The notes under the pieces: model-generated
Databases searched by the model: none
What the model was told of the DNA's origin: nothing
What the model saw: the letters and a program-made list of their open reading frames with translations, nothing else
Position numbers and translations under genes: made by a program
Assembly: GCA_023251725.1 (NCBI GenBank)
Contig: JAHEYG010000004.1
Span: 7,066-71,065, forward strand
Origin: Sphingobacteriaceae bacterium
GTDB taxonomy: Bacteria; Bacteroidota; Bacteroidia; B-17B0; Aurantibacillaceae
Direction: 5' to 3'
Length of the DNA: 64,000 bases
Shown here: positions 15,552 to 63,200 of the stretch, piece after piece
Layout: the number at the start of each line of letters is the position of its first letter
How positions within the stretch are numbered: position 1 is the first letter of the stretch

Positions 15552-15577
15552 CTCTAAATTATTTATCCTTCAAATAT

Positions 15578-15610: not shown

Positions 15611-15711
15611 ATAATTAGTTGATTATCAGTATGTTTATTTTACTTTTTAACAATAGTATATTAGGTATATATAGGGACAAATTATATCTTTACATTATAA
15701 AACTAAACGCC

Positions 15712-45484: not shown

Positions 45485-46462
45485 TTATTTTCTAAACCAA
45501 TTAATAGTTCGTTGTAATCCTTCTTCAAATAATATTTCGGGCAGATAACCTAAATTATTTTTTGCTTCTGTAATATCTGCCAGCGAATTTTTTACATCGC
45601 CAAAACGTTCTTCGCGGTGAATGGCTTTTGCATTGGGATTAATTTGATTTGCGATAAATTCAAACATTTTATTTACGCTTACGCTTTGTCCACAAGCAAT
45701 ATTAAATACTTTTCCTAAGGCATTTTTATTTTCATTCAATAAAGCTTTTATGTTTGCCTGTACCGCATTATCAATAAAAGTAAAATCGCGGCTCTGTTCT
45801 CCCGAGCCGTTTATATAAACCGGTTCGTTTTTCATTAACGATTCAATAAATAAAGGAATAGCCGCGGCGTAGGCACCGTTAGGGTTTTGCCGCGGACCAA
45901 AAATATTAAAATATCTCAACCCTATAATTTCCATATTATACGTTGAAGCAAAGATGGCGGCGTATTGCTCATTTACTTTTTTACTAACTGCATAAGGCGA
46001 AAGCGGTTTGCCAATGCGGTTTTCTACTTTCGGACTCTCATTCAAATCACCATAAACCGATGAAGAACTTGCGTATACAATTCGTTTTACCTTATTATTT
46101 TTTGCAGCAATTAAAATATTAATGAATCCGGTGGCGTTGGCCTGATGTGTTGCCAATGGGTTTTCGATACTGCGCGGTACAGAACCTAATGCCGCCTGAT
46201 GCGAAACATAATCAATTCCTATGCACGCTTTTTCGCAATCAACAGGATTAGTAATGTCGCCTTCGGTAAATTCGAAATTACTTAAAGATAAAAATGGTTT
46301 AATGTTTTCTAAATACCCTGTCGTTAAATTATCGAGAACACGAACTTTTTTGGCCTTATTATTCAATAAAAATTCTGCAATATGTGAGCCTATAAAACCG
46401 GCTCCTCCCGTAACAAGAAAAGTACTATTTTCTATTTGGTTATTTTTTAACACAGAGGTCAC
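45485..46462 (-). CDS. SDR-family NAD-dependent nucleotide-sugar epimerase (TviC/WbpP-like)
   Basis: TGGAGFIGSH Rossmann motif, YAVSK catalytic Y-x3-K. 325 aa. Confidence 0.8.
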   Translation of the reverse strand: MTSVLKNNQIENSTFLVTGGAGFIGSHIAEFLLNNKAKKVRVLDNLTTGYLENIKPFLSLSNFEFTEGDITNPVDCEKACIGIDYVSHQAALGSVPRSIENPLATHQANATGFINILIAAKNNKVKRIVYASSSSVYGDLNESPKVENRIGKPLSPYAVSKKVNEQYAAIFASTYNMEIIGLRYFNIFGPRQNPNGAYAAAIPLFIESLMKNEPVYINGSGEQSRDFTFIDNAVQANIKALLNENKNALGKVFNIACGQSVSVNKMFEFIANQINPNAKAIHREERFGDVKNSLADITEAKNNLGYLPEILFEEGLQRTINWFRK

Positions 46463-46490
46463 ACAGGTTTATGAGTTTCACAGAGAAACG

Positions 46491-47546
46491 TTATCGTTTT
46501 ACGTATTGAGCGTCGTAATATTTTTGGTATTCTCCCGAAGTAACATTTCTAAGCCACTCTTCGTTTTGCAAATACCAATCCACCGTTTTATCCAAACCTT
46601 CTTCAAATTGTAATGAAGGTTTCCAACCTAATTCTTTTTGCAGTTTTGTTGAATCAATGGCGTAACGTAAATCGTGACCGGCTCTGTCTTTTACAAACGA
46701 GATTAGTTTTTCATTTGTTCCTTCTGCCCTATTCAGTTTCTTATCCATTATTTTGCAAAGCAAACGTATTACATCAATGTTGGTCCATTCGTTATGTCCG
46801 CCGATATTGTAAGTATTACCGGGTTTTGTATTATGAAAAATTACATCAATGGCGCGAGCATGATCTTCAACAAACAACCAGTCTCTAACGTTCTCGCCCT
46901 TGCCGTAAATAGGAAGCGGTTTATTATTTTTAATATTGCTGATACAAAGCGGAATTAATTTTTCGGGAAAATGATTGGGACCATAATTATTAGAACAATT
47001 TGAAATAACAACCGGCAAACCATAAGTATCGTAATACGCCCGCACAAAATGATCGGAACTTGCTTTTGAGGCAGAGTACGGACTGTGCGGATCGTATGAA
47101 GTTGTTTCTGTAAACAAACCTGTATCGCCTAAGGAACCATAAACTTCATCGGTGCTGACATGATAAAACATTTTGAATTTTAAAGAATCAAGTTTGTAAA
47201 GTTGCTTTGCGGCATTTAATAAATTTACTGTTCCAATAACATTCGTATAAACAAATTCTAAGGGATTGGTAATACTTCTATCGACATGACTTTCGGCGGC
47301 TAAATGTATTACAGCATTAAATTTATGTTCTTCAAATAATTTATTAATAAAATTGGCATCAACAATATCGCCTTTAATAAATTTGTAATTTGGTTTATTT
47401 TCGATATCGGTTAAATTTGCCAGATTACCCGCGTAAGTCAATTTATCGAGATTGTAAATTGTAACATCGGGATATTTATTTACAAATAATCTCACCACAT
47501 GTGAACCAATAAATCCTGCGCCGCCCGTTATTAATATTTTCATCAT
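46491..47546 (-). CDS. rfbB: dTDP-glucose 4,6-dehydratase
   Basis: ITGGAGFIGSH, HLAAESHVDRS, STDEVYG, YSASKA. 351 aa. Confidence 0.88.
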   Translation of the reverse strand: MMKILITGGAGFIGSHVVRLFVNKYPDVTIYNLDKLTYAGNLANLTDIENKPNYKFIKGDIVDANFINKLFEEHKFNAVIHLAAESHVDRSITNPLEFVYTNVIGTVNLLNAAKQLYKLDSLKFKMFYHVSTDEVYGSLGDTGLFTETTSYDPHSPYSASKASSDHFVRAYYDTYGLPVVISNCSNNYGPNHFPEKLIPLCISNIKNNKPLPIYGKGENVRDWLFVEDHARAIDVIFHNTKPGNTYNIGGHNEWTNIDVIRLLCKIMDKKLNRAEGTNEKLISFVKDRAGHDLRYAIDSTKLQKELGWKPSLQFEEGLDKTVDWYLQNEEWLRNVTSGEYQKYYDAQYVKR

Positions 47547-47576
47547 TTAAAATTTATCATTCAACATTTAAAATTT

Positions 47577-48869
47577 CTAAAGACTCCAATAAGTAAATGA
47601 TTTTATTTTTCCCTTGTACATCCCTTTCACATCCACCACAATTCCGTTTTTATTTAAGATGCCCGAAAAATATTTATCATCAAAACCTTTATACTCTTTA
47701 TGATTTACAGCTACAATTACGCCATCGTAACCTTTTCCTAATTTATTTAAACCAAAACCGTATTCATGCTTTAATTCATCGCTGTCGGCATGCGGATCAA
47801 CAATTTCTACTTTCACACCAAACGATTTTAATTCTTTTACAATATCGGCCACTTTGCTATTTCTGATATCGCTTACATCTTCTTTAAAAGTTGCCCCCAT
47901 TACCAAAACTTTACTTTTGCTGATATTTTTATGCGCAGCAATTATTTTTTTTACGCAGGTTTTTGCAACATAAAATCCCATACTGTCGTTTACATATCGA
48001 CCACTATTGATAACACGCGCGTGATATCCGAGTTCTTCGGCTTTGTAAGTTAAGTAATACGGATCAACGCCAATGCAATGGCCGCCTACTAAACCCGGCG
48101 AGAATCTTAAAAAATTCCATTTTGTTCCGGCAGCTTCTAAAACATCGTAAGTATTAATTCCTAATCGCGAAAAAATAATAGAGAGCTCATTCATCAATGC
48201 AATATTTACATCTCGCTGTGTGTTCTCAATAATTTTAGCGGCTTCGGCCACTTTTATGGAAGATGCTTTATGAGTTCCGGGTTCTACAATAATTTCATAC
48301 ACACTCGAAATATTTTCCAAACTTTCTTTATCACAACCCGAAACAATTTTTAAAATTTTGGTAATGGTATGTTCTTTATCTCCGGGATTAATTCTCTCAG
48401 GAGAATAACCTACTTTAAAATCTTTTATAAATTTTAAACCCGAATGTTCTTCTAAAACAGGAATGCAATCTTCCTCTGTACAGCCGGGATAAACTGTAGA
48501 TTCATAAACAACGTAATCGCCTTTTTTCAAAACTTTTCCCACTGTAGTGGAAGCGCCCAGCAAAGGTTTTAAATCCGGTAAATTATGCTCGTCGATTGGC
48601 GTTGGAACAGCAATAATAAAAAAATTAGCCCTCTTTAAGTCTTCTAATTTATGAGTAAAGGAAATGCTGCAACCGGCAAAATCTTTTTTAGAAAGTTCGT
48701 TACTCGGATCCACCCCATTCTGCATCATCTTAACTCGCTTCTCATTTATATCGAAACCAATAACTTTTACTTTTTTTGCAAAAGCCAATGCAATTGGTAA
48801 TCCAACATATCCTAAACCAATAACTGCAATGGTAGAATTTTTTTTAATTATTTTCTCGTAAATATTCAT
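47577..48869 (-). CDS. Nucleotide-sugar 6-dehydrogenase (TviB/WbpO/VipA-like UDP-GlcNAc/UDP-GalNAc dehydrogenase)
   Basis: VIGLGYVGLP Rossmann motif and GLVGGHCIGVDPYY catalytic Cys motif. 430 aa. Confidence 0.85.
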   Translation of the reverse strand: MNIYEKIIKKNSTIAVIGLGYVGLPIALAFAKKVKVIGFDINEKRVKMMQNGVDPSNELSKKDFAGCSISFTHKLEDLKRANFFIIAVPTPIDEHNLPDLKPLLGASTTVGKVLKKGDYVVYESTVYPGCTEEDCIPVLEEHSGLKFIKDFKVGYSPERINPGDKEHTITKILKIVSGCDKESLENISSVYEIIVEPGTHKASSIKVAEAAKIIENTQRDVNIALMNELSIIFSRLGINTYDVLEAAGTKWNFLRFSPGLVGGHCIGVDPYYLTYKAEELGYHARVINSGRYVNDSMGFYVAKTCVKKIIAAHKNISKSKVLVMGATFKEDVSDIRNSKVADIVKELKSFGVKVEIVDPHADSDELKHEYGFGLNKLGKGYDGVIVAVNHKEYKGFDDKYFSGILNKNGIVVDVKGMYKGKIKSFTYWSL

Positions 48870-48877
48870 AGTACTTT

Positions 48878-49921
48878 TTAATTATTTTTTTTAAATAAAT
48901 TTTCGGGGCGCAAAGCATAAATACGTTCAATGATATCTACCACTTTTAATCCTTCGAGTGCGTTGGTTGAAATTTTATTTTTTCCGTTCAATGTATCAAT
49001 TACATTTTCAATTACAAAATTATGATTGTTGGCAGAACCTTTGTAAGCCCCGTAATCGTTGGCAGGATTTGTAGCCGCTAACAAAGGCATTTTATAATCT
49101 TTAATATTGCAAATTTCAATTTGATCCATGTACTGTCCGCCCACTTTAACCGAACCTTTGCTTCCTATAATGGTCAACGACGATTCTAAATTTTTATCCC
49201 ACACAGCGGTTGAATAATTTACACAGCCCATTCCGCCATTCACAAAATCGAAACTTACGAAACCGCTGTCTTCAAACGCCGTTGTATTTTGGTGATTAAA
49301 ATCGGCGAACTTTGCCTGTATGTTTGTAATATCGCCGAACAACCAATACATAATATCTATCCAATGAGAAAACTGTGTAAACAAAGTACCGCCATCTAAA
49401 TCCTGTGTGCCTTTCCAATTTCCTTTTTTATAATAACGTTCATCCCGGTTCCAATAGCAATTCAACTGCACCATGTAAATATCGCCAATGATTTTATTTT
49501 CAACTACCTCTTTTAACCAAACCGAAGGCGGCGAATAACGGTTTTGCATTACACAAAAAATAGTTTTATGTTGATGCAAGGCGGTAAAAACAATTTTTTC
49601 GCAATCGGCTTTTGTTAAGGCCATCGGTTTTTCGACCACCACATTTTTACCTGACTCCAACGCTTTAATAGCGTGCTGTGCATGTAAACCGTTAGGCGAG
49701 CAAACATTCACCACTTCCACTTCGGGATGCGCTTTTAGTAAGTCATCACTATTCTGATAAAATTTTTCTTTTAAATCCTCCAGTCCTAATTTATCTTTCT
49801 GCAACACATCGCACACAGCAATTAACTCACAATTAGGATTGCGACGCACCATTTCGGCGTGGCGTTTACCAATGTGACCTTGTCCGATGACTGCAAATTT
49901 TATTTTTTTATGCTGTTCCAT
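48878..49921 (-). CDS. Gfo/Idh/MocA-family oxidoreductase (WbpB-like)
   Basis: FAVIGQGHIGKRH N-terminal Rossmann motif and VVVEKPMA motif. It sits between a sugar dehydrogenase and a WbpD-like acetyltransferase. Confidence 0.8.
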   Translation of the reverse strand: MEQHKKIKFAVIGQGHIGKRHAEMVRRNPNCELIAVCDVLQKDKLGLEDLKEKFYQNSDDLLKAHPEVEVVNVCSPNGLHAQHAIKALESGKNVVVEKPMALTKADCEKIVFTALHQHKTIFCVMQNRYSPPSVWLKEVVENKIIGDIYMVQLNCYWNRDERYYKKGNWKGTQDLDGGTLFTQFSHWIDIMYWLFGDITNIQAKFADFNHQNTTAFEDSGFVSFDFVNGGMGCVNYSTAVWDKNLESSLTIIGSKGSVKVGGQYMDQIEICNIKDYKMPLLAATNPANDYGAYKGSANNHNFVIENVIDTLNGKNKISTNALEGLKVVDIIERIYALRPENLFKKNN

Positions 49922-50035
49922 CCTTTTTTACTCCGTGTTTGTTTTGTTTCAGTTTACGAATTCCTTTTTATTTATTTCCGGTTCGCTTGTTCAAATGTTC
50001 TATTGCTCAATTGTTCAAATGTTCGCTTGTTTTTT

Positions 50036-50614
50036 TTAAGAAACTCTCTTCACAAAATTATTTTCTAATTTATATTTCTGTCCGCTTTCATTACAGGCAG
50101 CATTTCCATCCTTATCAAATTCTAACTTGTGACCGAATTCACTCATCCATCCGGTTTGTCGTGCGGGATTTCCGATAACCAAAGCAAATGGCGGAACTGT
50201 TTTTGTAACAACAGCACCCGCACCAATGAAAGCGAATTCACCAATATCGTGTCCGCACACAATGGTAGCATTTGCACCAATGGATGCGCCTTTGCCAACA
50301 TGTGTTTTAGAATATTCTGATTTTCGATTAACAGCGCTTCTTGGATTAATTACATTGGTAAAAACCATCGACGGGCCCAAAAAAACATCATCATCACAAA
50401 TAACGCCGGTGTAAATAGAGACGTTATTCTGAACCTTTACATTTTTTCCCAAAACAACACCCGGCGAAATAACTACATTTTGACCAATATTGCAGTTTTC
50501 TCCCAATATGCTATCAGGCATTAAATGAGAAAAGTGCCATATTTTGGTTCCTTTTCCAATGGTACAACCTTCATCAATTAAGGCTGTGGGATGTGCAAAA
50601 TAGTGTGTTTTCAT
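50036..50614 (-). CDS. Left-handed beta-helix (hexapeptide) N-acetyltransferase, WbpD/WlbB-like
   Basis: Hexapeptide repeats (IGKGTKIWHFSHL, IGQNVVISPGVVLGKNVKVQNNVSI, IGANATIVCG). The ATG at 50614 is preferred over the TTG at 50635. Confidence 0.82.
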   Translation of the reverse strand: MKTHYFAHPTALIDEGCTIGKGTKIWHFSHLMPDSILGENCNIGQNVVISPGVVLGKNVKVQNNVSIYTGVICDDDVFLGPSMVFTNVINPRSAVNRKSEYSKTHVGKGASIGANATIVCGHDIGEFAFIGAGAVVTKTVPPFALVIGNPARQTGWMSEFGHKLEFDKDGNAACNESGQKYKLENNFVKRVS

Positions 50615-50811
50615 TGGGGTTTGTTCAATCTGCAAACTTAAAAAGAAATGTTACAATGTACAATTAATATCGTTTTTAAATGGCACAATTAGTGTGAAAA
50701 AAACATTTTTTTGAAAAACACCTCTAAAAATCAGTCTACTTTAAACGATAATTTACCAACAAAATTATCAATTTTAGCGACTTTTTTTGAAAAAATTCAG
50801 AAATTTTTGTA

Positions 50812-50830
50812 TTATATTTACATCCCTTTT
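50812..50830 (+). promoter_or_regulatory. Promoter-like -7 box plus conserved downstream CATCCCTTTT, upstream of the synthase operon
   Basis: TTATATTTACATCCCTTTT matches TTATATTTGCATCCCTTTT at 41428-41446 (rpmB promoter) in 18 of 19 positions. It lies 25 nt upstream of the ATG at 50855. Confidence 0.4.
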
Positions 50831-50854
50831 GTGCGAAATAAAAGCGGATGGAAA

Positions 50855-52933
50855 ATGACTAACTGTTATAAAAAAATTTCTTTGGTTTGCCTTTGTTTTT
50901 TGTGTTCAGTGTTTGGGAAAACTCAAACTTCGCTGGACTCCAATATTGATTCTTATATAAAGGATTTAAGCGCTGTTTGGAGTAAATACGATACTATTTC
51001 TTTTAACTCATTTTTTAGTGTAGATACCCTTGCCAAACCCACTTTTACCGTTTCTTTTTTTAATCCCGCCTCCAAACTAAAATCGTTGCAACTTCAAATT
51101 AACCGACAGGAACAACTCATAAAAAAGAAAGATTTGGGTTTTTCATTAAATGGTTTGTATCAATATAATTTTCAAAGACCATTTGCCGATCCTAATGAAA
51201 TTATTGTATTCAGGCAAAAAGCAACTTTTGGTATTGATTGGGATTTTTTGAATAACGGCTTATACGAAAATCGGATTTTATTCGGACAATTAAAAAATAA
51301 ATACAAAGCCATTAATGCTAAACGACTGGAAGAAAACGTTGCAAAATTTCAACAAAAAAACACAGAGAACATCATCAATTTTTTCAATAAACATAAACTT
51401 TCTGTTCTCCAAAAACGAAGAGAATTGGTGAATGACCAAAAACCCACAGTAGAAAAATTGTATGCACTTAAACAATTAACTACCGACAGTTATATTAAAT
51501 TATTCCAACACGAAACCGATATTTACGGACAACTTAATTTATACCGGGGATATAATGATGCGGCGCGATTAATTTCGAGCGACAGTAATTCAATAAAAGA
51601 AACTCCGCCTTTGGTGGATATTGATGTTCAGAAATTGTTTCAGATTTCTAACATTACCACTCCCGACTCCTCTGTTTATTACGAAAAAGAATCTTTAAAG
51701 CAGGGAAGCTATTTTTTGAGAGACTTAACCTTAAGAGCTTCTCTTAAATACAATTATTACGATCTTTATAATAACACAACGCTAGACCGCAACTTTGTTT
51801 CTGTAGGAATGAATTTTTCGATGCCCTTGGCTTTTAATTATTCGAACAAAAAAGAGTTGAACCGTTTGAACGGCGAATTGATTCAAACAAAAAACACAGC
51901 CCCTAATCAGGATTTAAATTATATTCTTATAAATACGTTTTACGAATACCGTTACAAACTTAAACAGTATTTTAATTTTATTGAGAAAAGAAAAGCGTTT
52001 GGCGAATTGATAAGAACCGAACAGGTGAAAAAACAAATGGGCGACATTGAATTTAATCCGAACACCGCTTTATATATTTTAGATGATTATTGGTCAATTA
52101 CCATTGAATTGCTCGATATAAAACAAGATTTGTATAAATTACTTCTCGCCATTAATGCCAAGCTTCCTAATCATGTTTTGAACGATTTTATTAAACCGGT
52201 CGAAATTGCACAGTATGCACAGCCGGTTGAAAAACCCTACCGAGCAATTTACATTTGGAGCGATGCATTTAAAAATCACGATGTACAAGTGCTTACTAAT
52301 TATTGCGAGTTAAACGAATTCAGTCATCTTCTTTTGTCCTATAACACTACTAAAAGTCATTTGCAAAATGTAAATCAGTTTATTTCTAAAAATTATACTA
52401 AAAATATTGCTTTAATGGTTGGAAGCAATAAATTATTTACCAATGGAAATATTTCATCTTACCTCGATTCTTTAAAACAAAATATTAATCTCACTTTCAT
52501 AAAAGAAATTCATTTAGATATTGAACCGCACACCATGGATGGCTTCAAAGAAAATAAAGATGCTTTTTTTGCAAAATATATTAAGCTATTAAAACTGGCG
52601 CAACAGTTTACCGGTAAAAACAAATTAAATTTATCGGTTTCCATTCCATTAAATTATCCCGAATCGGTACTCACCGAAATATTTAAATTATGCAGTAATG
52701 TGTATTTAATGGCTTATGAAAATGTGAAGCCTGAATTTATAAACGAAAAAATAAAAGAAGAAATTGCTTTAGGAAAAGATAAAATTGTAATTGCACTTCG
52801 CACAAAAGATTTCGAAAACCGTTCGGCCATGGACCAGCATTTTAAACTTTTCCAAATAAAAAAAATTGCCTATCACGATATTGATGACTTATTGAATTTT
52901 GATAATAAAAGTATTAATGTGAAAGATAAATGA
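50855..52933 (+). CDS. Outer-membrane factor (TolC-like) region fused to a C-terminal ~230-aa alpha/beta (TIM-barrel-like?) domain
   Basis: The start at ATG 50855 gives a signal peptide (ISLVCLCFLCSVFGKTQ). The N-terminal ~450 aa alternate beta-strands (LSLNGLYQYNF, ASLKYNYYDLY, VSVGMNFSMPL) with long helices, as in OEP/TolC. The C-terminal part shows repeated strand-helix units (IYIWSD, HLLLSY, IALMVGS, IHLDIEPH, LSVSIPL, VYLMAYE, IVIALR). Confidence 0.6.
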   Translation: MTNCYKKISLVCLCFLCSVFGKTQTSLDSNIDSYIKDLSAVWSKYDTISFNSFFSVDTLAKPTFTVSFFNPASKLKSLQLQINRQEQLIKKKDLGFSLNGLYQYNFQRPFADPNEIIVFRQKATFGIDWDFLNNGLYENRILFGQLKNKYKAINAKRLEENVAKFQQKNTENIINFFNKHKLSVLQKRRELVNDQKPTVEKLYALKQLTTDSYIKLFQHETDIYGQLNLYRGYNDAARLISSDSNSIKETPPLVDIDVQKLFQISNITTPDSSVYYEKESLKQGSYFLRDLTLRASLKYNYYDLYNNTTLDRNFVSVGMNFSMPLAFNYSNKKELNRLNGELIQTKNTAPNQDLNYILINTFYEYRYKLKQYFNFIEKRKAFGELIRTEQVKKQMGDIEFNPNTALYILDDYWSITIELLDIKQDLYKLLLAINAKLPNHVLNDFIKPVEIAQYAQPVEKPYRAIYIWSDAFKNHDVQVLTNYCELNEFSHLLLSYNTTKSHLQNVNQFISKNYTKNIALMVGSNKLFTNGNISSYLDSLKQNINLTFIKEIHLDIEPHTMDGFKENKDAFFAKYIKLLKLAQQFTGKNKLNLSVSIPLNYPESVLTEIFKLCSNVYLMAYENVKPEFINEKIKEEIALGKDKIVIALRTKDFENRSAMDQHFKLFQIKKIAYHDIDDLLNFDNKSINVKDK

Positions 52934-53023: not shown

Positions 53024-54157
53024 ATGAAAAGTATAAATTTTCAAAGAAACAAATCACTTATTCGTGTAGTAAACGAACCCGATAAAAAAGCGAAAAAACG
53101 CAATTGGGATAAGTTAATTTACATTGCTCTATTGGCGATTTTGGTGTGCTTTGGAACATATTATTTTATTGATAAGGGTTTTTTTGTGAATGCACAAGGT
53201 CAGGTTTTGATTGACGAAACTCACGTAAGATTAACCGATGATGTTCGGCTTTTAGAATATAAAGTTAAAGAAGGTGATAGCATCAGCATGGGCGATACTT
53301 TATTTTGCTACGCTTTTGGTTTAGATAAAGTAAACGGCACTTCAAGTATTGGCACCGATGGTTCAATAAATTTAAACGCCGGCGGTAATGAAGATATGTG
53401 GTGGTTTAAAGAATCATTTAGCATAAAAAAGAAAATAGCCACTAATAGAATTTCTCTCGAAAAAAATAAAATTTTAATTGATAGTTATGAAAAAGAAATA
53501 AAACGATTAACCAATGAAGTGGTGTTAGACGTATTACCAAAAACACGCTTAGATTATGCGCAAACACAAATACTAAATTTAAAAACCACCAATGCAAAAT
53601 TAGCAGCCGAAAATAGTGAATTTGCAGGTTTAGCGAGCACCTTACATCCCTTCGATAATAAAGGGAGGGTTGATTTTGTTAGAAGCGGAGGCTCGTTAAT
53701 TGGTAACGGTGGCTATTCGTTTTTTAAAGGCGGAACAGTAAGTAATTTCAGCGGTGAAATTTTAAGTGAACCTAAATTTTTTAGAGCCCCACTCGAAGGT
53801 ATTGTTACGCGTGTGTATATTCGTCAGCACGAAACTGCCTTGAAATCTGAAACTATTCTCACCATTCACAAACGTTATCCCACCACCATTAAAGCATTTT
53901 TTGAACAACAAGATTTACGTTATTTCAAAGTGGGCGATATTTTTACTTTAACGTTCCCTGACGGGACCGTTAGTCAGGGTATTTTACGCCGTTTTTACAT
54001 TGCCACTTATAATATGCCCGAAGAATTTCAGAAAAAATATGAATCTACCACCCGAGCCGTGGCAGCTGATATTTATCCGCTTACTAAAGAAGATTCCGAT
54101 AAATGGTGTGCCTTTCATAAAATGAGTGTAGAGATTACAAAATTTAAATACAATTAA
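53024..54157 (+). CDS. HlyD-type membrane-fusion (periplasmic adaptor) protein
   Basis: N-terminal TM (LIYIALLAILVCFGTYYFI), a lipoyl-like hairpin (VKEGDSISMGDTLFCY), a coiled coil (KKIATNRISLEKNKILIDSYEKEIKRLTNE), and a beta-barrel segment (GIVTRVYIRQHETALKSETILTI). Confidence 0.7.
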   Translation: MKSINFQRNKSLIRVVNEPDKKAKKRNWDKLIYIALLAILVCFGTYYFIDKGFFVNAQGQVLIDETHVRLTDDVRLLEYKVKEGDSISMGDTLFCYAFGLDKVNGTSSIGTDGSINLNAGGNEDMWWFKESFSIKKKIATNRISLEKNKILIDSYEKEIKRLTNEVVLDVLPKTRLDYAQTQILNLKTTNAKLAAENSEFAGLASTLHPFDNKGRVDFVRSGGSLIGNGGYSFFKGGTVSNFSGEILSEPKFFRAPLEGIVTRVYIRQHETALKSETILTIHKRYPTTIKAFFEQQDLRYFKVGDIFTLTFPDGTVSQGILRRFYIATYNMPEEFQKKYESTTRAVAADIYPLTKEDSDKWCAFHKMSVEITKFKYN

Positions 54158-54165: not shown

Positions 54166-55608
54166 ATGGAAACAAAGATTTTAAATAAAAGCATTGGGTT
54201 TAAAGATAACGTACTTACCTACGGCGATTATTCTCTTTGTTATATTGAAACCAACGGCGCACTTAAAATTGATCACGTTGAGTTTTTTGACGCTGTTATT
54301 TTAGAATCGCGTGACGCTGATTTTGCCCGGTTGATAATTAAAAAAATTCGGAGTAGTTTCGACATCAACGTTTATTTAAAACCCATTTTTTTAATTAATC
54401 ATAAGGAAACAACAGACAGTTACGTAAACGAATTGCACGACGGAATAATTTTTTCGTTCGATCAAATTCCTGAAAAAATAAATGACATTATCCATCTTCA
54501 AAATTTAGCCAAGCATTTAGATCATACACCTTCCAACTCTTTCGAAATTCAAATTTTTAAAAAAGCACTTAACTTTTTATACACGCGCGAAGACCGTTCA
54601 TTATCGCCGGTAGTTGACCCGGCTTCTTTTCTCAGTTATTCTTATCCGCTGCTCTCTGTAAATTTTGAAACCTACGAAGAATCAAAAGTGCTCGATATTT
54701 TAGAATGGGCTTTTCATGAAGATTTAATATGGCCCGATTATTTCGACAGAGTGTATTTATGTAATAATTGTAAAACCGGACGATTATCCATTCGCGAAAC
54801 TTGTCCTTCGTGCCAATCTTCTAATTTAAAACAAGAAGATTTAATACATCATTTTCCTTGCGGATATATTGGACCCATCTCCGATTTTAAAAATAAAGTG
54901 GATGGTTCTTTAAATTGTCCGAAATGTTCTAAAAGTATTCGCCACATTGGCGTGGATTACGATAAACCAAGCGTTATCAATCAATGTTTAAATTGTAATA
55001 ATGTGTTTCAGGATTATATTGTGAAAGCAAAATGCACACATTGCAGTCACGATACCGAAGTTCAATATTTAATTCCCAAAGAAATTAATATTTATAAATT
55101 AACCAAGAAAGGTCGCTTGGCTCCGGTTACAGGAATTGTTACTTCGGGTTTTGAAATTGGTGAAGAGATTAGCGGTACTGTAGGATTTAGTACTTTCTCA
55201 ACCATGATGCATTATGAGCAGCAGCGCATGAAATCAAATCCACAGTTGGTGAGTAATTATTCGGTATTGTATTTAGAAAACATTTTTGATATTCTTAAAA
55301 CCATGGGTATCATAAAAGAAAAAGCATTGCTTTCTGATTTAGCGCAAATTATTCGCGATAACATAACGGCGGCCGATTACATTACTTATCAAAATCCATC
55401 CTTAATTTGCATTTGCATTAACGACGAAAAATTAGTGGATGCGCAAATTTTAACCCAAACAGTCATTAAAAAATTAAAAGAATTATTTCATAATAACTTC
55501 AATAATTTTGAGTTGACTGTAAAATCAAAAACACAAGCATTGGTGCTCACCGAAAAATTTGATGACCGACTAAGAGAAATTACCAAAATCCTTGTCGAGG
55601 AAATATGA
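54166..55608 (+). CDS. Cytoplasmic protein: degenerate receiver-like N-domain + five CxxC pairs (TackOD1-like zinc-ribbon domain?) + C-terminal alpha/beta domain
   Basis: 480 aa. CxxC pairs at residues 199/202, 213/216, 251/254, 274/277 and 290/293. The N-terminal FDAVILESRD...NVYLKPIFLIN resembles the Asp pocket and K-P of REC domains. Confidence 0.75.
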   Translation: METKILNKSIGFKDNVLTYGDYSLCYIETNGALKIDHVEFFDAVILESRDADFARLIIKKIRSSFDINVYLKPIFLINHKETTDSYVNELHDGIIFSFDQIPEKINDIIHLQNLAKHLDHTPSNSFEIQIFKKALNFLYTREDRSLSPVVDPASFLSYSYPLLSVNFETYEESKVLDILEWAFHEDLIWPDYFDRVYLCNNCKTGRLSIRETCPSCQSSNLKQEDLIHHFPCGYIGPISDFKNKVDGSLNCPKCSKSIRHIGVDYDKPSVINQCLNCNNVFQDYIVKAKCTHCSHDTEVQYLIPKEINIYKLTKKGRLAPVTGIVTSGFEIGEEISGTVGFSTFSTMMHYEQQRMKSNPQLVSNYSVLYLENIFDILKTMGIIKEKALLSDLAQIIRDNITAADYITYQNPSLICICINDEKLVDAQILTQTVIKKLKELFHNNFNNFELTVKSKTQALVLTEKFDDRLREITKILVEEI

Positions 55609-56915
55609 TTAATTACATTGATAATTTCTTTAATTATATTTTTGCCGTGGGGCCGACAAAATTAATTAGAGTGTTTTGGTTTTTTGTTTTTTTCGAATTT
55701 CTCCGCTTTTTTGTTCTTGAACTTGCTGTTTTGTTGATTTGGAAATTAACTTCTAAATCTAAATTAATAAAATACGACGAAGCCCGCACAAAATTATTTA
55801 TTGAGCGGCCGCTTATTTCCATTATTGTTCCCGGTAAAAACGAGGGTAAAAATATTTATAAACTGGTTCGCTCAATGAGTGAACAAACTTATAAGAACCT
55901 TGAATTTATTGTGATTGATGATGGTTCGGACGACGATACCGAAATGATATGTAAAAGTCTGCAAAAAAACGGTTTGATTGATTTGTTTTTAAGAAACGAT
56001 GTGAGAGGGGGAAAAGCATCGGCTGCTAATTTAGGATTTCGTTATTCTTCAGGAAAAATTGTAGTGCATTTAGATGCCGATTGTTCTTACGACTACGATG
56101 CTATCGAAAAAATTATTATTCCATTTTATTTAGATGAAAATATTGGCGCTGTGGGAGGAAATATTTTAGTGCGTAATTACGATGATAATTTATGTACCAC
56201 CTTACAGGCCATTGAATACGCTGATACTATTTCGATAGGAAGAATTACCACCAGTTTCCTGGGATTGTACCGTGTGGTGTCGGGCGCATTTGGTGCTTTT
56301 AGTAAAGAGGCCTTAGACAGAGTTGAAGGTTGGGACATTGGCCCCGGATTGGATGGCGATATCACTGTAAAATTAAGAAAGCTGCGTTACAAAATTGTTT
56401 TTGAACCTGATGCAATTTGCCAAACGAGTGTGCCTAATTCTTACAACGGACTAAATAAGCAACGTTTGCGATGGGATAAATCCATTATCAGATTTCGGGT
56501 GAGAAAACATAAAGATGTATTTTTTCCGAACAACCTTTTTAATTTTTCCAATTTCGTTTCATCATTCGAAAATATTACTTACAACATTGTTTTAAATTTA
56601 AAATGGTGGGTGTATATTTTTGATATGATTATTAATTTTCATAATCTGTTAGGGTTTATTCTTCCCTTTAATATTTTGCTTTACACCAGCAGCAACTATT
56701 TAAAGTTTTTGGTTTTTTCTTTATTCCGCAAACGCAAAAACGAATCGGTGGCTTACTTTTTATTATACATACCTTGCATGGTTATTTATTTTGGATTGTA
56801 TTTGCGTATTGTAAGAACCACTGCGTATATACAGGAATTCTTCTTTAAAAAATCATACGACGATCCGTGGAATCCGGCAAAATCATCGCGACACGCAAAG
56901 GAATTAGGAATATGA
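55605..56915 (+). CDS. Membrane-embedded processive family-2 glycosyltransferase (polysaccharide synthase, BcsA/PgaC/NodC/HAS class)
   Basis: IIVPGKNEG, FIVIDDGSDD, HLDADC (DxD), GAFGAF and the QRLRWDK (Q-x-x-R-W) motif. Hydrophobic segments lie at both ends. Its ATGA overlaps the upstream stop. Confidence 0.85.
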   Translation: MINYIDNFFNYIFAVGPTKLIRVFWFFVFFEFLRFFVLELAVLLIWKLTSKSKLIKYDEARTKLFIERPLISIIVPGKNEGKNIYKLVRSMSEQTYKNLEFIVIDDGSDDDTEMICKSLQKNGLIDLFLRNDVRGGKASAANLGFRYSSGKIVVHLDADCSYDYDAIEKIIIPFYLDENIGAVGGNILVRNYDDNLCTTLQAIEYADTISIGRITTSFLGLYRVVSGAFGAFSKEALDRVEGWDIGPGLDGDITVKLRKLRYKIVFEPDAICQTSVPNSYNGLNKQRLRWDKSIIRFRVRKHKDVFFPNNLFNFSNFVSSFENITYNIVLNLKWWVYIFDMIINFHNLLGFILPFNILLYTSSNYLKFLVFSLFRKRKNESVAYFLLYIPCMVIYFGLYLRIVRTTAYIQEFFFKKSYDDPWNPAKSSRHAKELGI

Positions 56916-59572
56916 TGGGGGGGTTAAAAAATAAAATTTCAATTGTTTTTCTTTTCTGTGGACATTTGTTATTTTCTCAGATTTTAAGGGCGCCGTTATT
57001 TTCTTTTCCCGCCGGATTCTACAGCGATTCGGTAATTATTAATATTAATAGCCCCGATGCAGGCGTTACCATTCGTTATACTTTAGACGGAAGCACACCA
57101 AAAATAACTTCTGCCATCTTTAGCACACCGTTAGTAATGAAAGACCGAACGCCGCAGTTGAACCGATTTTCAAACATCCCTACAAATCCCGGATTTAATT
57201 ACCCAAAACCGGGTTACGATGTTTCCAGAGCCGATTCGAGAGGATGGCTACCGCCATATGGAACGGTTTTTAAGGGGACTGTATTAAAAGCGCTTTGTTT
57301 TAAAGCAGGAGCCATAACCACTATTGATTCGGTGAGCACCGCCACTTATTTAATCACCAATTTATTAAACACGCGTTATTCGTTTCCTGTTTTATCAATA
57401 TCTGTCGACAGCGCTGCTTTTTTTTCGGATAGCACCGGAATTTATGTTTATGGTATAGATACCGCTGCTCAGGGAAATTATAATGTAGATAAAGCTAATC
57501 GCAAAATTCACATTGAGTTTTTTGAAACCGACGGCACTAAAAAATTAAAACAATATTGCGATGCGCGCATTCACGGCAACGGCGGGCGGCATGCGCCTCA
57601 AAAAAGTTTACAACTTATTTCTTCTAAAATTTACGGTGTAAAAAAATTCGATTATAAATTTTTTAAAGATAAAATTACACATGTGTTTAACCGCCTACTT
57701 CTTCGTAACGGAGGCCATCGACCCGATTGCATGCCGCGCGATGATATTGCCACCGAAATTTTAAAAGTCTCCGAAAATAATGATGTACAGCATGTGCGGC
57801 ACGCTGTTGTTTTTTTGAATGGCGAATATTGGGGCTTGCAAAGTATACGCGATGTGTTCGACGATAATTACTTGGCCAATAAATTTAATTTAAAAAATTA
57901 TAATTTCGTTGTCCTCAAGGAAACCGGAACACTTGATGAAGGATTGCCCGGCGATGAAATTCCTTATCAAAATTTATTAAGTTTTGTTCAAACTAATAAT
58001 TTAAATATTTATTCTAATTATGCACAAGTGCGCGAAAAAATCGACCTCGAAAGTTTTACCGATTTCCAGTGCTCACAAATATTTTTGGGAAATGGCGATT
58101 GGCCCAATAACAATACCAAATTCTGGCGCTATAAAAGGGCAGTTAACGATACTTCAGTAAATACCATTTACGACGGCAAATGGCGCTGGTTTATTTTTGA
58201 CATGGACGCCGCCTGGGGCGGCGATTGCACCGGCTTCTATCCAAATTTTAATGCGGTTTTAAATGCCTTTGATATTTCTTACAACAGTTATACTGCCATG
58301 TTGCGTAATCTTATTTTAAACACTTCTTACAAAAATTATTTCATTAACCGTTTTGCTGATTTATTGAACACTACTTTTTTAATATCAAGAACAACTTCTA
58401 TTATCAATTCTCAAAATGCTGAACTGAATCCCGAAATGTTGGAGCACGTAAATCGTTGGCGGTATCCTTCGGTAGCCACTACACTTTTGGCTCGCTCAAC
58501 CGAAACACCGTCGCTTACCAAATGGAATGCGATTAATTCGGGGATGTTGAATTTTGCTTCACAACGGCCTGCTAAAACGTACAAACATTTTTTAAATTAT
58601 TTTTTACTTGCCGATACTGTAAAAACCACACTTAATGTAAACGATTCAACAAAAGGTAAAATCAGAATTAACAGTTTGTATTTAGATAAATGGCTGGTTG
58701 GCGCAAACCCGAATGTGTATCCCTGGAAAGGAACTTATTTCGATGGAAATAAAATTCAATTGGAAGCCATTGCTAAACCCGGGTTTAAATTTTTAAATTG
58801 GAGCACGCCTTCTTATACCACCACCAATTTAAACCTCAACGTTACACAGGATACAAATATTACTGCGGTGTTTGCCGTAGACAGCAGTTTTAAACCGCTG
58901 CATTATGTTTTTATAAATGAAATAATGGCCAGCAACACAAAAGGTATTGCCGACGATTACAACGAAAAAAATGATTGGATAGAAATTTATAACCCTAATA
59001 ATTTTACAATTAATCTTTCCGATTATTATTTGACCGACTCTGTAAATAACAAAACAAAATTTCAGATAAGCACTAAACGTTATCCGACGCACAACATTAA
59101 ACCTAAGGGTTTTTTATTATTATGGGCCGATAATGATGTAGAGCAAGGAAGTTTACATTGTAATTTTAAATTAAGCTTAGCCGCCGGATGCCTGTATTTA
59201 ATTTTACCGGATGGAAAAACAGTAGTGGATTCTATTTGCTATCCCACACAAAAATCGGATATATCGTGGGGAAGAGAAAAAGACGGCGCCGATAAATGGA
59301 TCGATTGGGATGTGCCCACTCCCAACGCCAGCAATCTTAAAATAATTAAACCACCTTACATCGGCGATTTATTGCTTTATCCCAACCCGGTAAAAAATGG
59401 TGAACTTTTAAATTTTACTTATTTAATTTCGGCCAATGTGTTTAATGTATTGGGACAAAAAGTTTCTGAAATTAATAATTCAAATATTTTAAATGTAGAA
59501 AGTTTTGCTTCCGGATTTTATTTTGTAAAAATAATAGACGGCCCCGTTTTAAAATTTATCAAAATAAATTAA
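56912..59572 (+). CDS. T9SS-secreted multidomain protein: chitobiase/hexosaminidase-C-like domain, CotH kinase-family domain, lamin-tail (LTD) domain, type A T9SS sorting domain
   Basis: The ATG at 56912 overlaps the GT2 stop (ATGA). Domain evidence: FPAGFYSDSVIININSPDAGVTIRYTLDGSTP, then a CotH-like core (LLLRNGG...FLNGEYWGLQSIRD...), then LTD (VFINEIMASNT...NDWIEIYNPNNFTINLSDYYLTD), then CTD (LLLYPNPVKNGELLNF...GFYFVKII). Confidence 0.8.
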   Translation: MMGGLKNKISIVFLFCGHLLFSQILRAPLFSFPAGFYSDSVIININSPDAGVTIRYTLDGSTPKITSAIFSTPLVMKDRTPQLNRFSNIPTNPGFNYPKPGYDVSRADSRGWLPPYGTVFKGTVLKALCFKAGAITTIDSVSTATYLITNLLNTRYSFPVLSISVDSAAFFSDSTGIYVYGIDTAAQGNYNVDKANRKIHIEFFETDGTKKLKQYCDARIHGNGGRHAPQKSLQLISSKIYGVKKFDYKFFKDKITHVFNRLLLRNGGHRPDCMPRDDIATEILKVSENNDVQHVRHAVVFLNGEYWGLQSIRDVFDDNYLANKFNLKNYNFVVLKETGTLDEGLPGDEIPYQNLLSFVQTNNLNIYSNYAQVREKIDLESFTDFQCSQIFLGNGDWPNNNTKFWRYKRAVNDTSVNTIYDGKWRWFIFDMDAAWGGDCTGFYPNFNAVLNAFDISYNSYTAMLRNLILNTSYKNYFINRFADLLNTTFLISRTTSIINSQNAELNPEMLEHVNRWRYPSVATTLLARSTETPSLTKWNAINSGMLNFASQRPAKTYKHFLNYFLLADTVKTTLNVNDSTKGKIRINSLYLDKWLVGANPNVYPWKGTYFDGNKIQLEAIAKPGFKFLNWSTPSYTTTNLNLNVTQDTNITAVFAVDSSFKPLHYVFINEIMASNTKGIADDYNEKNDWIEIYNPNNFTINLSDYYLTDSVNNKTKFQISTKRYPTHNIKPKGFLLLWADNDVEQGSLHCNFKLSLAAGCLYLILPDGKTVVDSICYPTQKSDISWGREKDGADKWIDWDVPTPNASNLKIIKPPYIGDLLLYPNPVKNGELLNFTYLISANVFNVLGQKVSEINNSNILNVESFASGFYFVKIIDGPVLKFIKIN

Positions 59573-60180
59573 AAACTATATTTTATTCCAAGCCCCGAAG
59601 AATTAATTGTAATTGAAACATCGTTCAAAATCTGGTCTAAATGCTTATTCCTAAGTTTTACGTTTAAATAAGTCATGGCAGCATCAAATACCAATAAAGC
59701 GCTTCCCTGCACAATAAACGAATTGCCAAAACCCGAGCACAAATTGCGGTCGTTGATACTGCTTTGGTTTTTAGATACTTCCTTTAATAAAAATCCTGCA
59801 GTAATGTAAGTAAGATCCAGCATGGCATTGGCAAGAAATACTTTTTCGGTTTTTGTATGGTCATTTAAGAGCGAAATTTTCGACTTATACTCTTTATTTT
59901 TAGCTAGTAGCGAGGGCAGAGCAATCCCTAAATTAATTAATCCCCATCCTGCATTCATGGCATAAAAATACTTTTCTTCGGGCAAATTCGATGCAAAATA
60001 TCCTGCTCCGCTCGCAAGGTTAATTGACGCCCAAGTGGTTAGAACAGTCATTCCGCGTTTACTTAATTGGTACCTTTTATCTGCAAAATCCTTAATGAGA
60101 TAACCACTTTGTGCCCTTAAACTTACCACGTATAAAGAAAATACGACCACTTTTAAAATGTTATACATTTTATGTTTCAT
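59569..60180 (-). CDS. Hypothetical multi-pass membrane protein
   Basis: 203-aa ORF with a signal/TM segment (VVVFSLYVVSLRAQ) and further hydrophobic helices. It is convergent with the CotH gene, and the two ends overlap by 4 nt. Confidence 0.55.
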   Translation of the reverse strand: MKHKMYNILKVVVFSLYVVSLRAQSGYLIKDFADKRYQLSKRGMTVLTTWASINLASGAGYFASNLPEEKYFYAMNAGWGLINLGIALPSLLAKNKEYKSKISLLNDHTKTEKVFLANAMLDLTYITAGFLLKEVSKNQSSINDRNLCSGFGNSFIVQGSALLVFDAAMTYLNVKLRNKHLDQILNDVSITINSSGLGIKYSF

Positions 60181-60197
60181 ATATTTCCTTTTATTTT

Positions 60198-60205
60198 TAT
60201 ATTTG
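60198..60205 (+). promoter_or_regulatory. Candidate -7 box (TATATTTG) for the 60249 gene
   Basis: Perfect TAnnTTTG match 44 nt upstream of the ATG at 60249. Confidence 0.35.
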
Positions 60206-60248
60206 AAAGGTCAAAGTTAAATTTATTAAATAATTTATAATTGTGGAT

Positions 60249-63200
60249 ATGATTTCAGGTTTATTTAAAAGAAAAGTAAAAAGCGCGCTTATCGCGGGAG
60301 CTTTATTAGTTGCTGGTAATTCTTACTCACAACTTGGTCTTAGTTGGTCAGAAATGGGTCCGGATGACGTGGCCGGTCGTTGCCGTGCAATGATTATTGA
60401 TAACACCGATCCTACCGGAAACACCATGTACGCCGCTGGTACAAGCGGTGGTATTTTTAAATCAACGGATGCTGCAAACAATTGGGCTCCTCTAAACGAT
60501 CAATCGGCCTCTTTAATAGTTTCCAGTATGGCACAGGCTCCTAACGGCGTTATTTACGTTGGTACCGGCGAAACATTTGCTCGTGGTGGTGATGGTTCAG
60601 GATTAACCGGCTTTATAGGAAAAGGTTTATACAAATTCTCGCCGGGTGCAACCAGCATCACTTTAGTGAAAGATTCAGCTTTATTTGGCAATATTAATGA
60701 GGTGGTGGTTGACCCAACTTCCAATAATAAAATTTATGTTGCGGGCGATAGGGGTTTATTTGTTTCAACAGATGCTGGTGCCACTTTTGCTTTAGGAAAC
60801 ACTACAGTTTCTGCTATGGACGTTAAAGTTACGCCCGACGGAACGGTTTATTATTCGGAAGGAACAAAAACAAGTTCTACTTCGCAAGTTTGGAAAAGTG
60901 TCAGCGGTACAGTGGGTACATTTTCTAATATTACCCCAACACTAACTACTAATAACGGACGAATCGAAATTGCAGTTTCACCAAGCAATCCTAATTACGT
61001 TTATATCTCCATTGCAAAAAAATTCACACCATCTACTCTTATTGGTGGCGGTTTATATGCATTTTACGCTTCTAATGATAAAGGCGTAACATGGAAATTA
61101 ATTATTTATGGAACGGCTCAATTAGATCCATTAACCAGTACAACCAGCAGCTCTTCCAGTTTCGGAGATTATTGCAATACTTTAGTGGTTGACCCTACAA
61201 ACCCGGGATCGGTTTACATTGCCGGTTATGTTATTTATAACTGGAGACAAATTTCGGGCGCCGCTTTTGGAACAGGTGGATGGACTCAAATTGGAACAGA
61301 ATTTGGTGCCGGTATCTTTCCACTATTTGTTCATACCAAAGTTCACGATATTAAATTTCTTCCTTCTAACTCTAAACAATATTTCATTGCTACCGACGGT
61401 GGTATTTACAAAACAGTATCGCTAACTAATGACCCTTATTTTTGGCCTACTGCTTTTTTACCATTTAATAAAGGTTTTAATATTTCTCAATTTAACTCTG
61501 TTGCTTATCAAAATTTTCCTAAAAACATTGCAGCAACCGGAAGCCCGAGCCTTAACCCGGCGGCAGGAGTAGCCGGTGGTACAAGCGGTAACGGACCTTG
61601 TTATTTACCCGGTACTTTAAATACACTTCAAACTTCTGTTGGTTATACAAGCGTTGATTCTTATCAGTCAGATTTTTCTAAACTTTTACCTAATGCATTA
61701 TTCGTTTCAAATGGATACGGCTCTATACAAAGAAGTAACGATATTGCCAATGTACCCCCATCTACTTTTTACGATGCTCCTTATAAAGTAGGGGCTGCCG
61801 GTGGACCGGGAACAACTACTTTTGCCAATGAAATAACCCCAATGAGATTGTGGGAAAATTACGGCAATGTTGCTCCTCCGGTGGATTTTGCTATTGTGTA
61901 TGATGTGCCTATTAAAAGCACTTTTGTAAATACCGGCAAAAACACATATTCGTTTGCTATTAATAGTACCCGACCTCAGGCAGCAGCAAAATATGATACC
62001 GTTTATATTACAGCTACCAGTACTAAAAAAGAAGGAATGAGTAATCATCCTGCAACTTACAATTACACAGTTGCTAATACTTTGCCGGTGGGGCCTACAG
62101 CAGTTACCGCAAATACAGTTACCTCTGCTGTAACTTTTACTGTTGTTAATACAAGACCAAACGCAAATATTAAATATTCTTCTATTGTAATGACTTCAAC
62201 ACCCATTCCAACCAATATTGTAGCGGCACAAAGCGTAACTTTTACTCCTGTTTATACAGGTAGTGTTGTTACGAGCGTTCTTACAACAGCCACTGCAACT
62301 GATAATGCAATATTTATTACTGCTACACCATCTGCTACTCCAACTGACAGTATGCATTTTACTTTTGATATAGCGCCTGATAATATTTCTTTAATTTCTT
62401 TTCAATTTAATTATCTGCCTACACAAACTCAATTTGTTTTAGCCACTACTCGGCCCTCTAGTATTTGCAGGTACGATACCATCGCGGTAAAATCTACAAA
62501 TCCATTACAAACTTTTACTATTTTACCTAAATACGATTACAATGCAAATGTGGTTTCTTATGCTTTCTTAGGAACAGGAGGAAATACTTTAGCAGTTGGC
62601 AATAACACAGTTACTCCATACGCATCTCTTACTGATAGTATTCGTTTCACGTTTAATACCGCTCCTCTTTTGTCTTCTTTAATTACCGTGCGAACGCATT
62701 TAAGATATGTACAAAACATTACTTTAGTTCCAACTTATTCCGGATCTACAGTTACCGCAGTTGCTGCCATTGGTTCGGCTAATACGGTTTCTCCTATAAA
62801 TAATTTTGTTTATCCTCTAAAGAGTTTAACAGATAGTATTAGATTTTATTTTAAAACCAAACCGGATGATTCGTGTACCATATCTTCGGTAGTTAAGCTA
62901 AGATATAATTCGGGCGATTATGTTACAGTTAACAATACCGATATAAGTAATAGTTTTTTTAAAGACAGTTTACTTCTTACCAGTACACTTACTTCAAACA
63001 GCATTCCGCCTTTTGTAAAAATTCCTTTAAGAAAATCGGCACGAATGGCGGTGGGAATTACCGCTGCGGTTTATGTTGTGAAACGACCATTGAATTTTGC
63101 TATTAATCCTGACTGGGTTAAAATAGCAGGTAAAAATTCGCGCCCGGATAGTGCATCGGGAATGCCAGCAAAAATATATAGTAATACTCCTGCTGTTCCT

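Follow-up and report, generated by a model that had tools for sequence, protein, structure and literature searches.

The question raised by this locus is what kind of soluble protein is made together with a membrane-embedded polysaccharide synthase of glycosyltransferase family 2 (GT2), and what it does for that synthase. The gene in question lies at 54166..55608 of the window (the whole stretch of DNA analysed, 64 kb from a Sphingobacteriaceae bacterium) and was described in the original prediction, made from the sequence alone, as encoding a receiver-like protein with five zinc-ribbon-type CxxC pairs and as a candidate new type of synthase regulator. With somewhat more confidence than doubt, the gene is assigned here to a module for synthase-dependent exopolysaccharide secretion, for which it would supply a dedicated subunit, cytoplasmic and either regulatory or accessory in function. 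The role of a synthase partner or regulator is the best reading because the linkage to the GT2 gene is conserved very strongly, both in related genome loci (78/80) and in distant members of the family (8/8). The features of the gene and its product are the following.

54166..55608, + strand: open reading frame (ORF) of 480 amino acids (aa), predicted soluble cytoplasmic protein built, in this order, of pseudo-receiver, TackOD1 and degenerate GGDEF domains
54193..54522, + strand: N-terminal alpha/beta domain, probable pseudo-receiver (aa ~10-119)
54559..55101, + strand: TackOD1 domain (aa 132-312), with an acidic helical part (aa ~126-196) and then a zinc-ribbon cluster
54760..55044, + strand: Cys cluster, five CxxC plus H229-x-x-C232, 12 candidate ligands
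55156..55575, + strand: degenerate GGDEF domain (aa ~331-470), from profile comparison with the PDB and from Foldseek
55605..55608, + strand: ATGA stop/start overlap of 4 nt, with TGA at 55606-55608 and the ATG of the GT2 gene at 55605-55607

TackOD1 domain and conserved linkage to the synthase gene

The central domain had been likened to TackOD1 in the original prediction, and this was borne out by the Pfam search: PF18551 (TackOD1) was matched with E=4e-52 and 176.9 bits against a cutoff of 32, over model positions 11-188 of 188, and the same model was matched by 28/28 aligned homologues. TackOD1 was defined as an output domain of the response regulators of TACK archaea that is also found "in some bacteria" and whose function is obscure, with 11 conserved Cys arranged in five CxxC and one HxxC (PMC5847659, Galperin et al. 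2018). The Cys pattern of the 480-aa protein agrees with this published definition. The five CxxC pairs are located exactly where they had been read, at nt 54760-55044, namely CNNC at aa 199 (C199/202), CPSC at aa 213 (C213/216), CPKC at aa 251 (C251/254), CLNC at aa 274 (C274/277) and CTHC at aa 290 (C290/293), and HFPC at aa 229-232 (H229/C232) was found in addition. Five or more CxxC were obtained in just 1 of 200,000 shuffles of the 480-aa protein. The 12 candidate ligands would be enough for three tetrahedral Zn sites.

Among the 253 aligned family members the 11 Cys and H228/H229 vary hardly or not at all, and the motif RHIGVDYDKP (aa 259-268, nt 54940-54969) inside the Cys cluster is invariant. 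Identity to diverse representatives of the family was 46%, 20% and 18% for the zinc-ribbon part, the N-terminal domain and the degenerate GGDEF domain, respectively. Judged from the alignment, the zinc module is the invariant core of the protein and the sole part under strong constraint. Since a transmembrane-like segment is absent from the 480-aa protein (the highest Kyte-Doolittle hydropathy over 19 residues, KD19, being 1.02), the protein is predicted to be cytoplasmic; it is acidic, with an isoelectric point (pI) of 5.7 and a net charge of -12.

The linkage to the synthase gene, on which the original prediction had relied in a single sequence, was found to hold in other genomes. GT2 lies directly downstream in the 78 of 80 genome loci mentioned above, whose proteins share 41-88% identity with the 480-aa protein. 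The stop codon of the gene was confirmed to overlap the GT2 start, and among the 78 related loci having both genes the overlap is of the 4-nt ATG type in 36, of 8 nt in 11 and of 1 nt in 4, so that it is kept in at least 51/78. Translational coupling of the two genes is implied by the ATGA overlap. The full order is a gene for a ~700-aa protein, a gene for an adaptor resembling membrane fusion proteins (MFP), the gene for the 480-aa protein and the GT2 gene, and the upstream pair is present in essentially all loci that extend far enough. In the distant members, 8/8 of which were checked individually, with both members carrying a true receiver (REC) domain and members carrying an I-site included, the core of MFP-like gene, family gene and GT2 gene (~434-447 aa) was again found, and the gene for the ~700-aa protein (there ~650-707 aa, with no Pfam match) is present wherever the contig reaches.

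The family is large. More than 500 homologues were collected, mostly of ~480 aa and almost all from metagenome-assembled genomes of Bacteroidota, and a search of 1.84 billion cluster representatives returned 2384 clusters (50% identity) at E<=1e-3, 743 of them also passing E<=1e-30. By their source names, individual members come from Balneola, Prolixibacteraceae, Flavobacteriaceae and Nitrospirota, and the proteins themselves are called "hypothetical protein", "GGDEF domain-containing protein", "response regulator" or, wrongly, "diguanylate cyclase".

Flanking domains and their variation across the family

For the N-terminal domain, the claim of a degenerate receiver was upheld in part. No match to Response_reg (PF00072) was found in Pfam at E<=1 for the protein of the window, no REC match was found at E<=10 by running the family profile against the PDB sequences, and the alignment of the domain to the REC domains of the sister clade by hhalign gave a probability of 0.5%. 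These results speak against the claim; weak structural enrichment and the position of the domain speak for it. The AlphaFold2 (AF2) model of the domain has a predicted local distance difference test (pLDDT) value of 84.7, a predicted template-modelling score (pTM) of 0.78 and the secondary-structure order b-b-b-a-b-a-b-a-b-a. Foldseek with this model returned nothing at E<=0.001 (best E-value 0.019), and about half of the top 50 weak matches (E 0.02-0.4, TM 0.42-0.46, ~80 columns) are receivers or pseudo-receivers, including the FleQ REC, CheY, the CikA pseudo-receiver and FlrA. Members of a sister clade, for example P0137, P0142 and P0165 (~483 aa), have a canonical Response_reg domain in this place, before TackOD1, with E from 1e-20 to 1e-23.

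In the whole-protein alignment, the "DxxxxD" of REC strand b3 falls on D42-AVIL-E47 of the protein of the window, and E47 occupies the column of the phospho-acceptor Asp, which among the 243 pseudo-type members is D in 136, E in 44 and N in 18. True receivers have a DD pair, a T/S and a K, none of which is present in the domain; in an approximately aligned stretch, N78 and S97/D99 come close to the Thr/Ser and Lys positions of the REC-type members. On positional and weak structural grounds the domain is kept as a probable receiver-derived pseudo-receiver.

The C-terminal domain had been overlooked in the original prediction. The profile of 28 homologues matched GGDEF structures in the PDB (3ign with E=1.4e-4, 5euh with 6.9e-4, and also 4zve), and the top 50 Foldseek matches of the full-length AF2 model (mean pLDDT 79.9) were all GGDEF domains with E ~1e-6 and target TM 0.64-0.73, so that they bear on the C-terminal fold and not on that of TackOD1. 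The Pfam GGDEF model (PF00990) gave no match for the protein of the window and a weak match for 5/28 homologues. The position of the GG(D/E)EF motif reads QNPSL (aa 409-413, nt 55390-55404; family consensus xNxS[T/L]), the substrate- and metal-binding DxD/K/N/D positions are replaced in the alignment to 3ign, and the GGDEF motif is lost in 253/253 aligned members. By these residues, the domain is predicted to be catalytically dead in the 480-aa protein and across the aligned family. The name of active diguanylate cyclase, given at NCBI to one Nitrospirota homologue, was rejected on the same loss of the motif.

The I-site, taken as the RxxD five residues upstream of the GGDEF position, was located in the alignment by checking its column against DgcR (RKSD) and its I-site mutant (AKSA). 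In the copy of the window it is replaced by T401-A-A-D404 (aa 401-404, nt 55366-55377). Membership of the GGDEF fold is confirmed, and both the features of a cyclase and those of an I-site receptor are absent from this copy.

The state of the I-site varies across the family. R401 is present in 91/253 aligned members and D404 is kept in 236/253, and the complete RxxD is kept in 64/135 diverse cluster representatives. R357, R401, D404 and R432 occur together in 44 pseudo-REC members, where the copy of the window has S357, T401, D404 and T432. The profile of these 44 members matched the structures of cyclases that bind cyclic di-GMP (c-di-GMP), namely DgcR 6zxm with E=1e-13 and 3ign with 2.5e-13; their "RtsD" aligns exactly with the RKSD of DgcR, which is mutated to AKSA in the deposited I-site mutant 6zxb, and their R432 aligns with an Arg of the helix after the GGDEF strand, a position that we take to be that of PleD R390. 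Since about a third of the aligned family keeps RxxD and 44 members have two extra Arg, c-di-GMP sensing is probably part of the repertoire of the family. The proposal that the protein takes the place of c-di-GMP-type proteins is not supported in its original form; a c-di-GMP-independent mode remains plausible for the lineage of the window, where S357, T401 and T432 are found.

Ten REC-type members have a canonical Response_reg domain (E down to 1e-23), and R401 is present in none of them. In the loci L081, L085 and L088 (proteins P0137, P0148 and P0165), an apparently phosphorylatable REC replaces the pseudo-receiver and the I-site Arg of the GGDEF domain is absent; no histidine kinase gene was found next to these three loci in the stretches read. 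Most close homologues have T or K at position 401, and the non-Arg state is stable in the clade of the window. From the residue states, three alternative inputs appear to exist in the family, namely a phosphorylatable REC, a c-di-GMP I-site, or neither, and the protein of the window is assigned to the last state, which is stable in its clade.

Proposed role and rival explanations

In the mechanism proposed, the module would consist of the ~700-aa protein, the MFP-like adaptor, the 480-aa protein and the GT2 synthase. By ancestry, the 480-aa protein would be a response regulator of the REC-TackOD1 type that was joined to a GGDEF domain. It would be produced together with the synthase, in fixed proportion, via the overlapping stop and start codons, and would most likely act after translation, its target being either the membrane GT2 or a complex of GT2 with the MFP. 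As the effector surface, the invariant TackOD1 core, with its three predicted zinc sites in the Cys cluster, would touch the synthase, and the role in synthesis may be an activating one. The flanking domains would serve as exchangeable inputs, reading phosphorylation through a true REC or c-di-GMP through RxxD and two further Arg. Because both inputs are degenerate in the lineage of the window (E47; S357, T401 and T432), the copy studied here is probably a constitutive co-activator or scaffold, or else responds to another cue, such as a change in the oxidation or metal loading of the Cys cluster. Canonical c-di-GMP sensing by this copy is unlikely from its residues, and we infer that c-di-GMP binding has been lost in it.

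A broader proposal can be put forward only tentatively, and is doubtful as a whole: TackOD1 may be an effector module that directly gates processive membrane machines (GT2 here, type IV pili in Thaumarchaeota), with an input that is swappable between REC, I-site and neither, and the lineage of the window may be c-di-GMP-independent, perhaps acting via the redox or metal state of the tri-zinc core.

Four rival explanations were weighed and are taken in the order in which they survive. According to the first, the protein is a transcription factor of the one-component or orphan response-regulator-like kind, in which TackOD1, as a winged-helix-like part plus zinc ribbons, binds DNA and controls the operon. 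It would fit the definition of TackOD1 as the output domain of archaeal response regulators, the PriA-like arrangement that has been noted for the domain (PMC5847659), the frequent binding of nucleic acids by zinc ribbons, and the AF2 secondary-structure order of aa 126-211, which is compatible with a winged helix. However, DNA binding is down-weighted by the acidic charge, both of the whole protein and of the helical part (aa 126-196, pI 4.35; the family median pI of the zinc part is 6.7), and by the position of the gene within the operon, between the MFP and the synthase genes and with overlapping codons, which is typical of stoichiometric subunits and not of regulators. No helix-turn-helix family was matched in Pfam by the protein of the window or the 28 aligned homologues, and the thaumarchaeal relatives (arCOG06883, the archaeal TackOD1 proteins), encoded in type IV pilus loci, have been described as cytoplasmic (PMC4858521). 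A transcription factor is regarded as unlikely.

According to the second, the protein of the window has remained, like PelD, BcsE and PssE, a receptor for c-di-GMP, which binds the ligand at a non-canonical or rebuilt site and switches the synthase on as c-di-GMP rises. The GGDEF fold is retained, D404 is almost invariant (the 236/253 given above), R354 and R397 are conserved, and many relatives in the same operon context have a complete I-site. Against this, positions 357, 401 and 432 are all non-basic in the copy of the window, and T, K or other residues at 401 are stable across its clade. c-di-GMP signalling is sparse in Bacteroidota, and, as a weak argument, GGDEF, EAL and PilZ were not matched among the larger ORFs scanned in the 64-kb window. 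This receptor is likewise considered unlikely.

Thirdly, the protein could be a redox or zinc sensor, in which oxidation or metal loss at the 11-Cys cluster shifts the conformation and ties polysaccharide synthesis to oxidative or metal stress, as the input that survives where there is neither a REC nor an I-site. Zinc-thiolate redox switches are established, for example in Hsp33 and RsrA, and the cluster, with eleven invariant Cys and two invariant His, is the one strongly constrained module in a lineage where the other inputs are degenerate. However, zinc sites of purely structural function should show invariant Cys clusters just as much, the sequence does not separate a sensor from a scaffold, and no redox gene is linked in the conserved module, so that a sensor of this kind is held to be quite unlikely. 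Just as improbable is a non-regulatory assembly or stability factor of the trans-envelope complex, such as a GT2 chaperone or a docking site to which the MFP attaches by its cytoplasmic tail, which would agree with the degeneration of both recognisable sensory sites in the copy of the window, with the fixed stoichiometry suggested by translational coupling and with the scaffold-like action of BcsE in recruiting BcsRQ to the membrane (PMC7439463), but against which stand the relatives whose REC or I-site inputs look functional in an unchanged gene context, pointing to a regulated step and not to assembly alone.

A regulatory or accessory subunit of the synthase is thus preferred, and several points weigh against it. 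A dedicated transcription factor, or a factor for assembly, would also fit the adjacency and overlap of the genes; the loss of the canonical I-site leaves other ligand sites possible; the co-occurrence of the three Arg may partly reflect shared ancestry and not selection; the AF2 model is of low confidence in its zinc-ribbon region (pLDDT 40-70); and in full-text searches of the literature no experimentally characterised member of the family was found.

With these results the orphan TackOD1 domain gains its first strong functional context in bacteria, as the constant neighbour, in Bacteroidota, of a synthase resembling PgaC and hyaluronan synthase (HAS), and a widespread four-gene exopolysaccharide module is defined (the 743 clusters at 50% identity and E<=1e-30). 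The family would offer a natural experiment in which one synthase regulator swaps a phospho-REC, a c-di-GMP I-site or none, and the control of synthases in lineages with weak c-di-GMP signalling is made testable, with predictions at the level of single residues (R357, R401, R432 and the 11 Cys). The general principle is already known.

Neighbouring genes and comparison with known systems

The other genes of the module and of its surroundings are the following.

50711..52933, + strand: first module gene, ~700-740-aa protein, immediately followed by the MFP-like gene; translation may in fact begin at an internal Met
53024..54157, + strand: HlyD/MFP-like periplasmic adaptor of 377 aa (Pfam HlyD_3 E=0.01; NCBIfam RND_mfp 3e-5)
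55605..56915, + strand: membrane-embedded processive GT2 synthase of 436 aa, PgaC/IcaA-like and HAS-like, from Pfam, NCBIfam and PDB alignment
56867..59572, + strand: accessory protein with CotH and lamin-tail domains (CotH-LTD) and a sorting tail of the type IX secretion system (T9SS), from Pfam and NCBIfam, called from a GTG inside the end of the GT2 gene
45485-50635, - strand: sugar-nucleotide gene set, divergently adjacent to the module
59569-60180, - strand: DUF6992 membrane protein, convergent to the CotH gene
60234-64000, + strand: open frame of at least 1255 aa running off the end of the window, last readable residues LYPNPASD

For the synthase, Glycos_transf_2 (1.5e-27) and Chitin_synth_2 (3.5e-8) were matched in Pfam, and the best NCBIfam match was TIGR03937 PgaC_IcaA with 1e-49, at 169 bits far below the equivalog cutoff of 422. 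Its aa 112-388 align to the hyaluronan synthase 7sp7, hydrophobic segments are located at either end, and 61-86% identity is shared across the loci where the synthase was found. The identification of the MFP-like protein is weak, its family profile matching EmrA, MacA and ZneB with E from 3e-3 to 9e-3, and a weak BSH_YknX match was obtained for the MFP-like proteins of the distant loci.

The ~740-aa protein gave no match in Pfam, NCBIfam or the PDB with the single sequence, and none in the PDB with a 27-sequence profile of its family. Its conserved C-terminal ~230 aa contain the invariant motifs HLDxEPH and MAYE in the family alignment. These C-terminal motifs resemble a glycoside-hydrolase-like barrel. 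From its position alone, the protein could be an export, outer-membrane or polymer-processing component; the label of a TolC-like protein was rejected, with no detectable similarity to TolC or to anything else.

The sugar-nucleotide gene set encodes two NAD-dependent epimerases/dehydratases, a UDP-sugar 6-dehydrogenase, a Gfo/Idh/MocA oxidoreductase and a hexapeptide acetyltransferase, and is reminiscent of the way in which WbpA/B/D make 2,3-diacetamido uronic acids. Genes for UDP-glucose dehydrogenase lie beside the module in the distant loci L082, L083 and L090 as well, and in the family member P0241 part of such a dehydrogenase is fused to the protein. The neighbouring UDP-sugar dehydrogenase genes suggest that the polymer contains uronic acid.

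The CotH kinase-like/lamin-tail gene lies downstream in only ~20/80 loci and is therefore taken as accessory and not core. The DUF6992 gene was not found in the related loci, and for that reason is unlikely to be a module member. The apparently "gene-free" 3.8 kb at the end of the window is a gene for a large surface protein, and nothing was found by Rfam on 59500-64000. The LYPNPASD at the end of its open frame resembles the start of a T9SS sorting domain. Away from the module, a cluster at 13424-16650 contains genes for a NYN-domain protein (13424-14113), a small alarmone synthetase-like protein with a RelA/SpoT domain (14490-15551, - strand) and an IS1595-family transposase (15619-16650), and is possibly a mobile or defence-related islet.

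Among known systems, the archaeal TackOD1 proteins are alike in the full-length, high-scoring domain match, the same Cys pattern, the position downstream of a receiver or receiver-like domain, the cytoplasmic location and the occurrence in a locus for a cell-surface machine. The protein of the window differs from them in being bacterial, in being continued by a degenerate GGDEF domain and in lying beside GT2 and not beside pilus genes.

The REC-GGDEF proteins PleD, WspR and DgcR share the order of a receiver and then a GGDEF domain, and the profile of the I-site-type members reaches DgcR with E=1e-13, as given above, with coinciding I-site columns. Unlike the family, which lost the motif and the substrate residues and has a 180-aa zinc module between the two domains, they are active cyclases.

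With respect to the module, the mixed-linkage glucan system BgsBA-TolC (PMC5567048, PMC13438883), the cyanobacterial cellulose system of Tll0007 with HlyD-like and TolC-like proteins (PMC12430437) and Alg44 likewise combine a GT2 with a HlyD/MFP-like adaptor, and neither the module of the window nor the systems of the BgsBA-TolC type have BcsB- or PgaA/B-type partners. In these known systems the c-di-GMP sensor is within the synthase or the MFP (PilZ or the C-terminus of BgsA), whereas here a separate soluble protein is encoded between the MFP and the synthase. PgaCD is alike in that PgaC/IcaA is the best NCBIfam match of the GT2 and in that PgaC needs a small or accessory partner encoded beside it, and is unlike in that genes for PgaA, PgaB and PgaD are missing here and a uronic-acid polymer is suggested by the neighbouring UDP-sugar dehydrogenases.

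The dead GGDEF domains of PelD and PssE are required for the polysaccharide synthase, and by analogy the I-site-type members of the family probably work like PelD and PssE. In PelD (Pseudomonas Pel) and PssE (Listeria Pss), as here, a dead GGDEF domain stands beside a polysaccharide synthase (PMC7439463, PMC4125290). PelD is, in contrast, membrane-anchored and has a GAF domain, PssE is a small stand-alone GGDEF protein, and both need RxxD and have no TackOD1 or receiver-like domain.

BcsE is a regulator of cellulose secretion of the E. coli type, with a tandem of degenerate REC and degenerate GGDEF domains ("GIL"), whose closest structural relative is PelD, whose receiver is without helix alpha1 and the phospho-transfer residues, and which combines the roles of scaffold and sensor (PMC7439463). 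The protein of the window, compared with BcsE by description beyond the GGDEF fold, is alike in having a degenerate receiver and a dead GGDEF domain, in being soluble and in serving a synthase-dependent polysaccharide system. BcsE is unlike in having a RecA-like N-terminal domain of its own and no zinc module, in binding c-di-GMP at an intact RxxD and in working through BcsQ, BcsR and BcsF, whereas in the protein of the window TackOD1 lies between the two domains and the I-site Arg is missing.

In view of the degenerate GGDEF domain that had been overlooked, the protein is not the wholly new type of regulator first supposed and is best filed with the degenerate REC/GGDEF regulators of polysaccharide synthases, from which it is set apart by its predicted tri-zinc TackOD1 core and by the swapping of its inputs. 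Its relation to BcsE, PelD and PssE is best read, by analogy, as one of logic and partly of ancestry.

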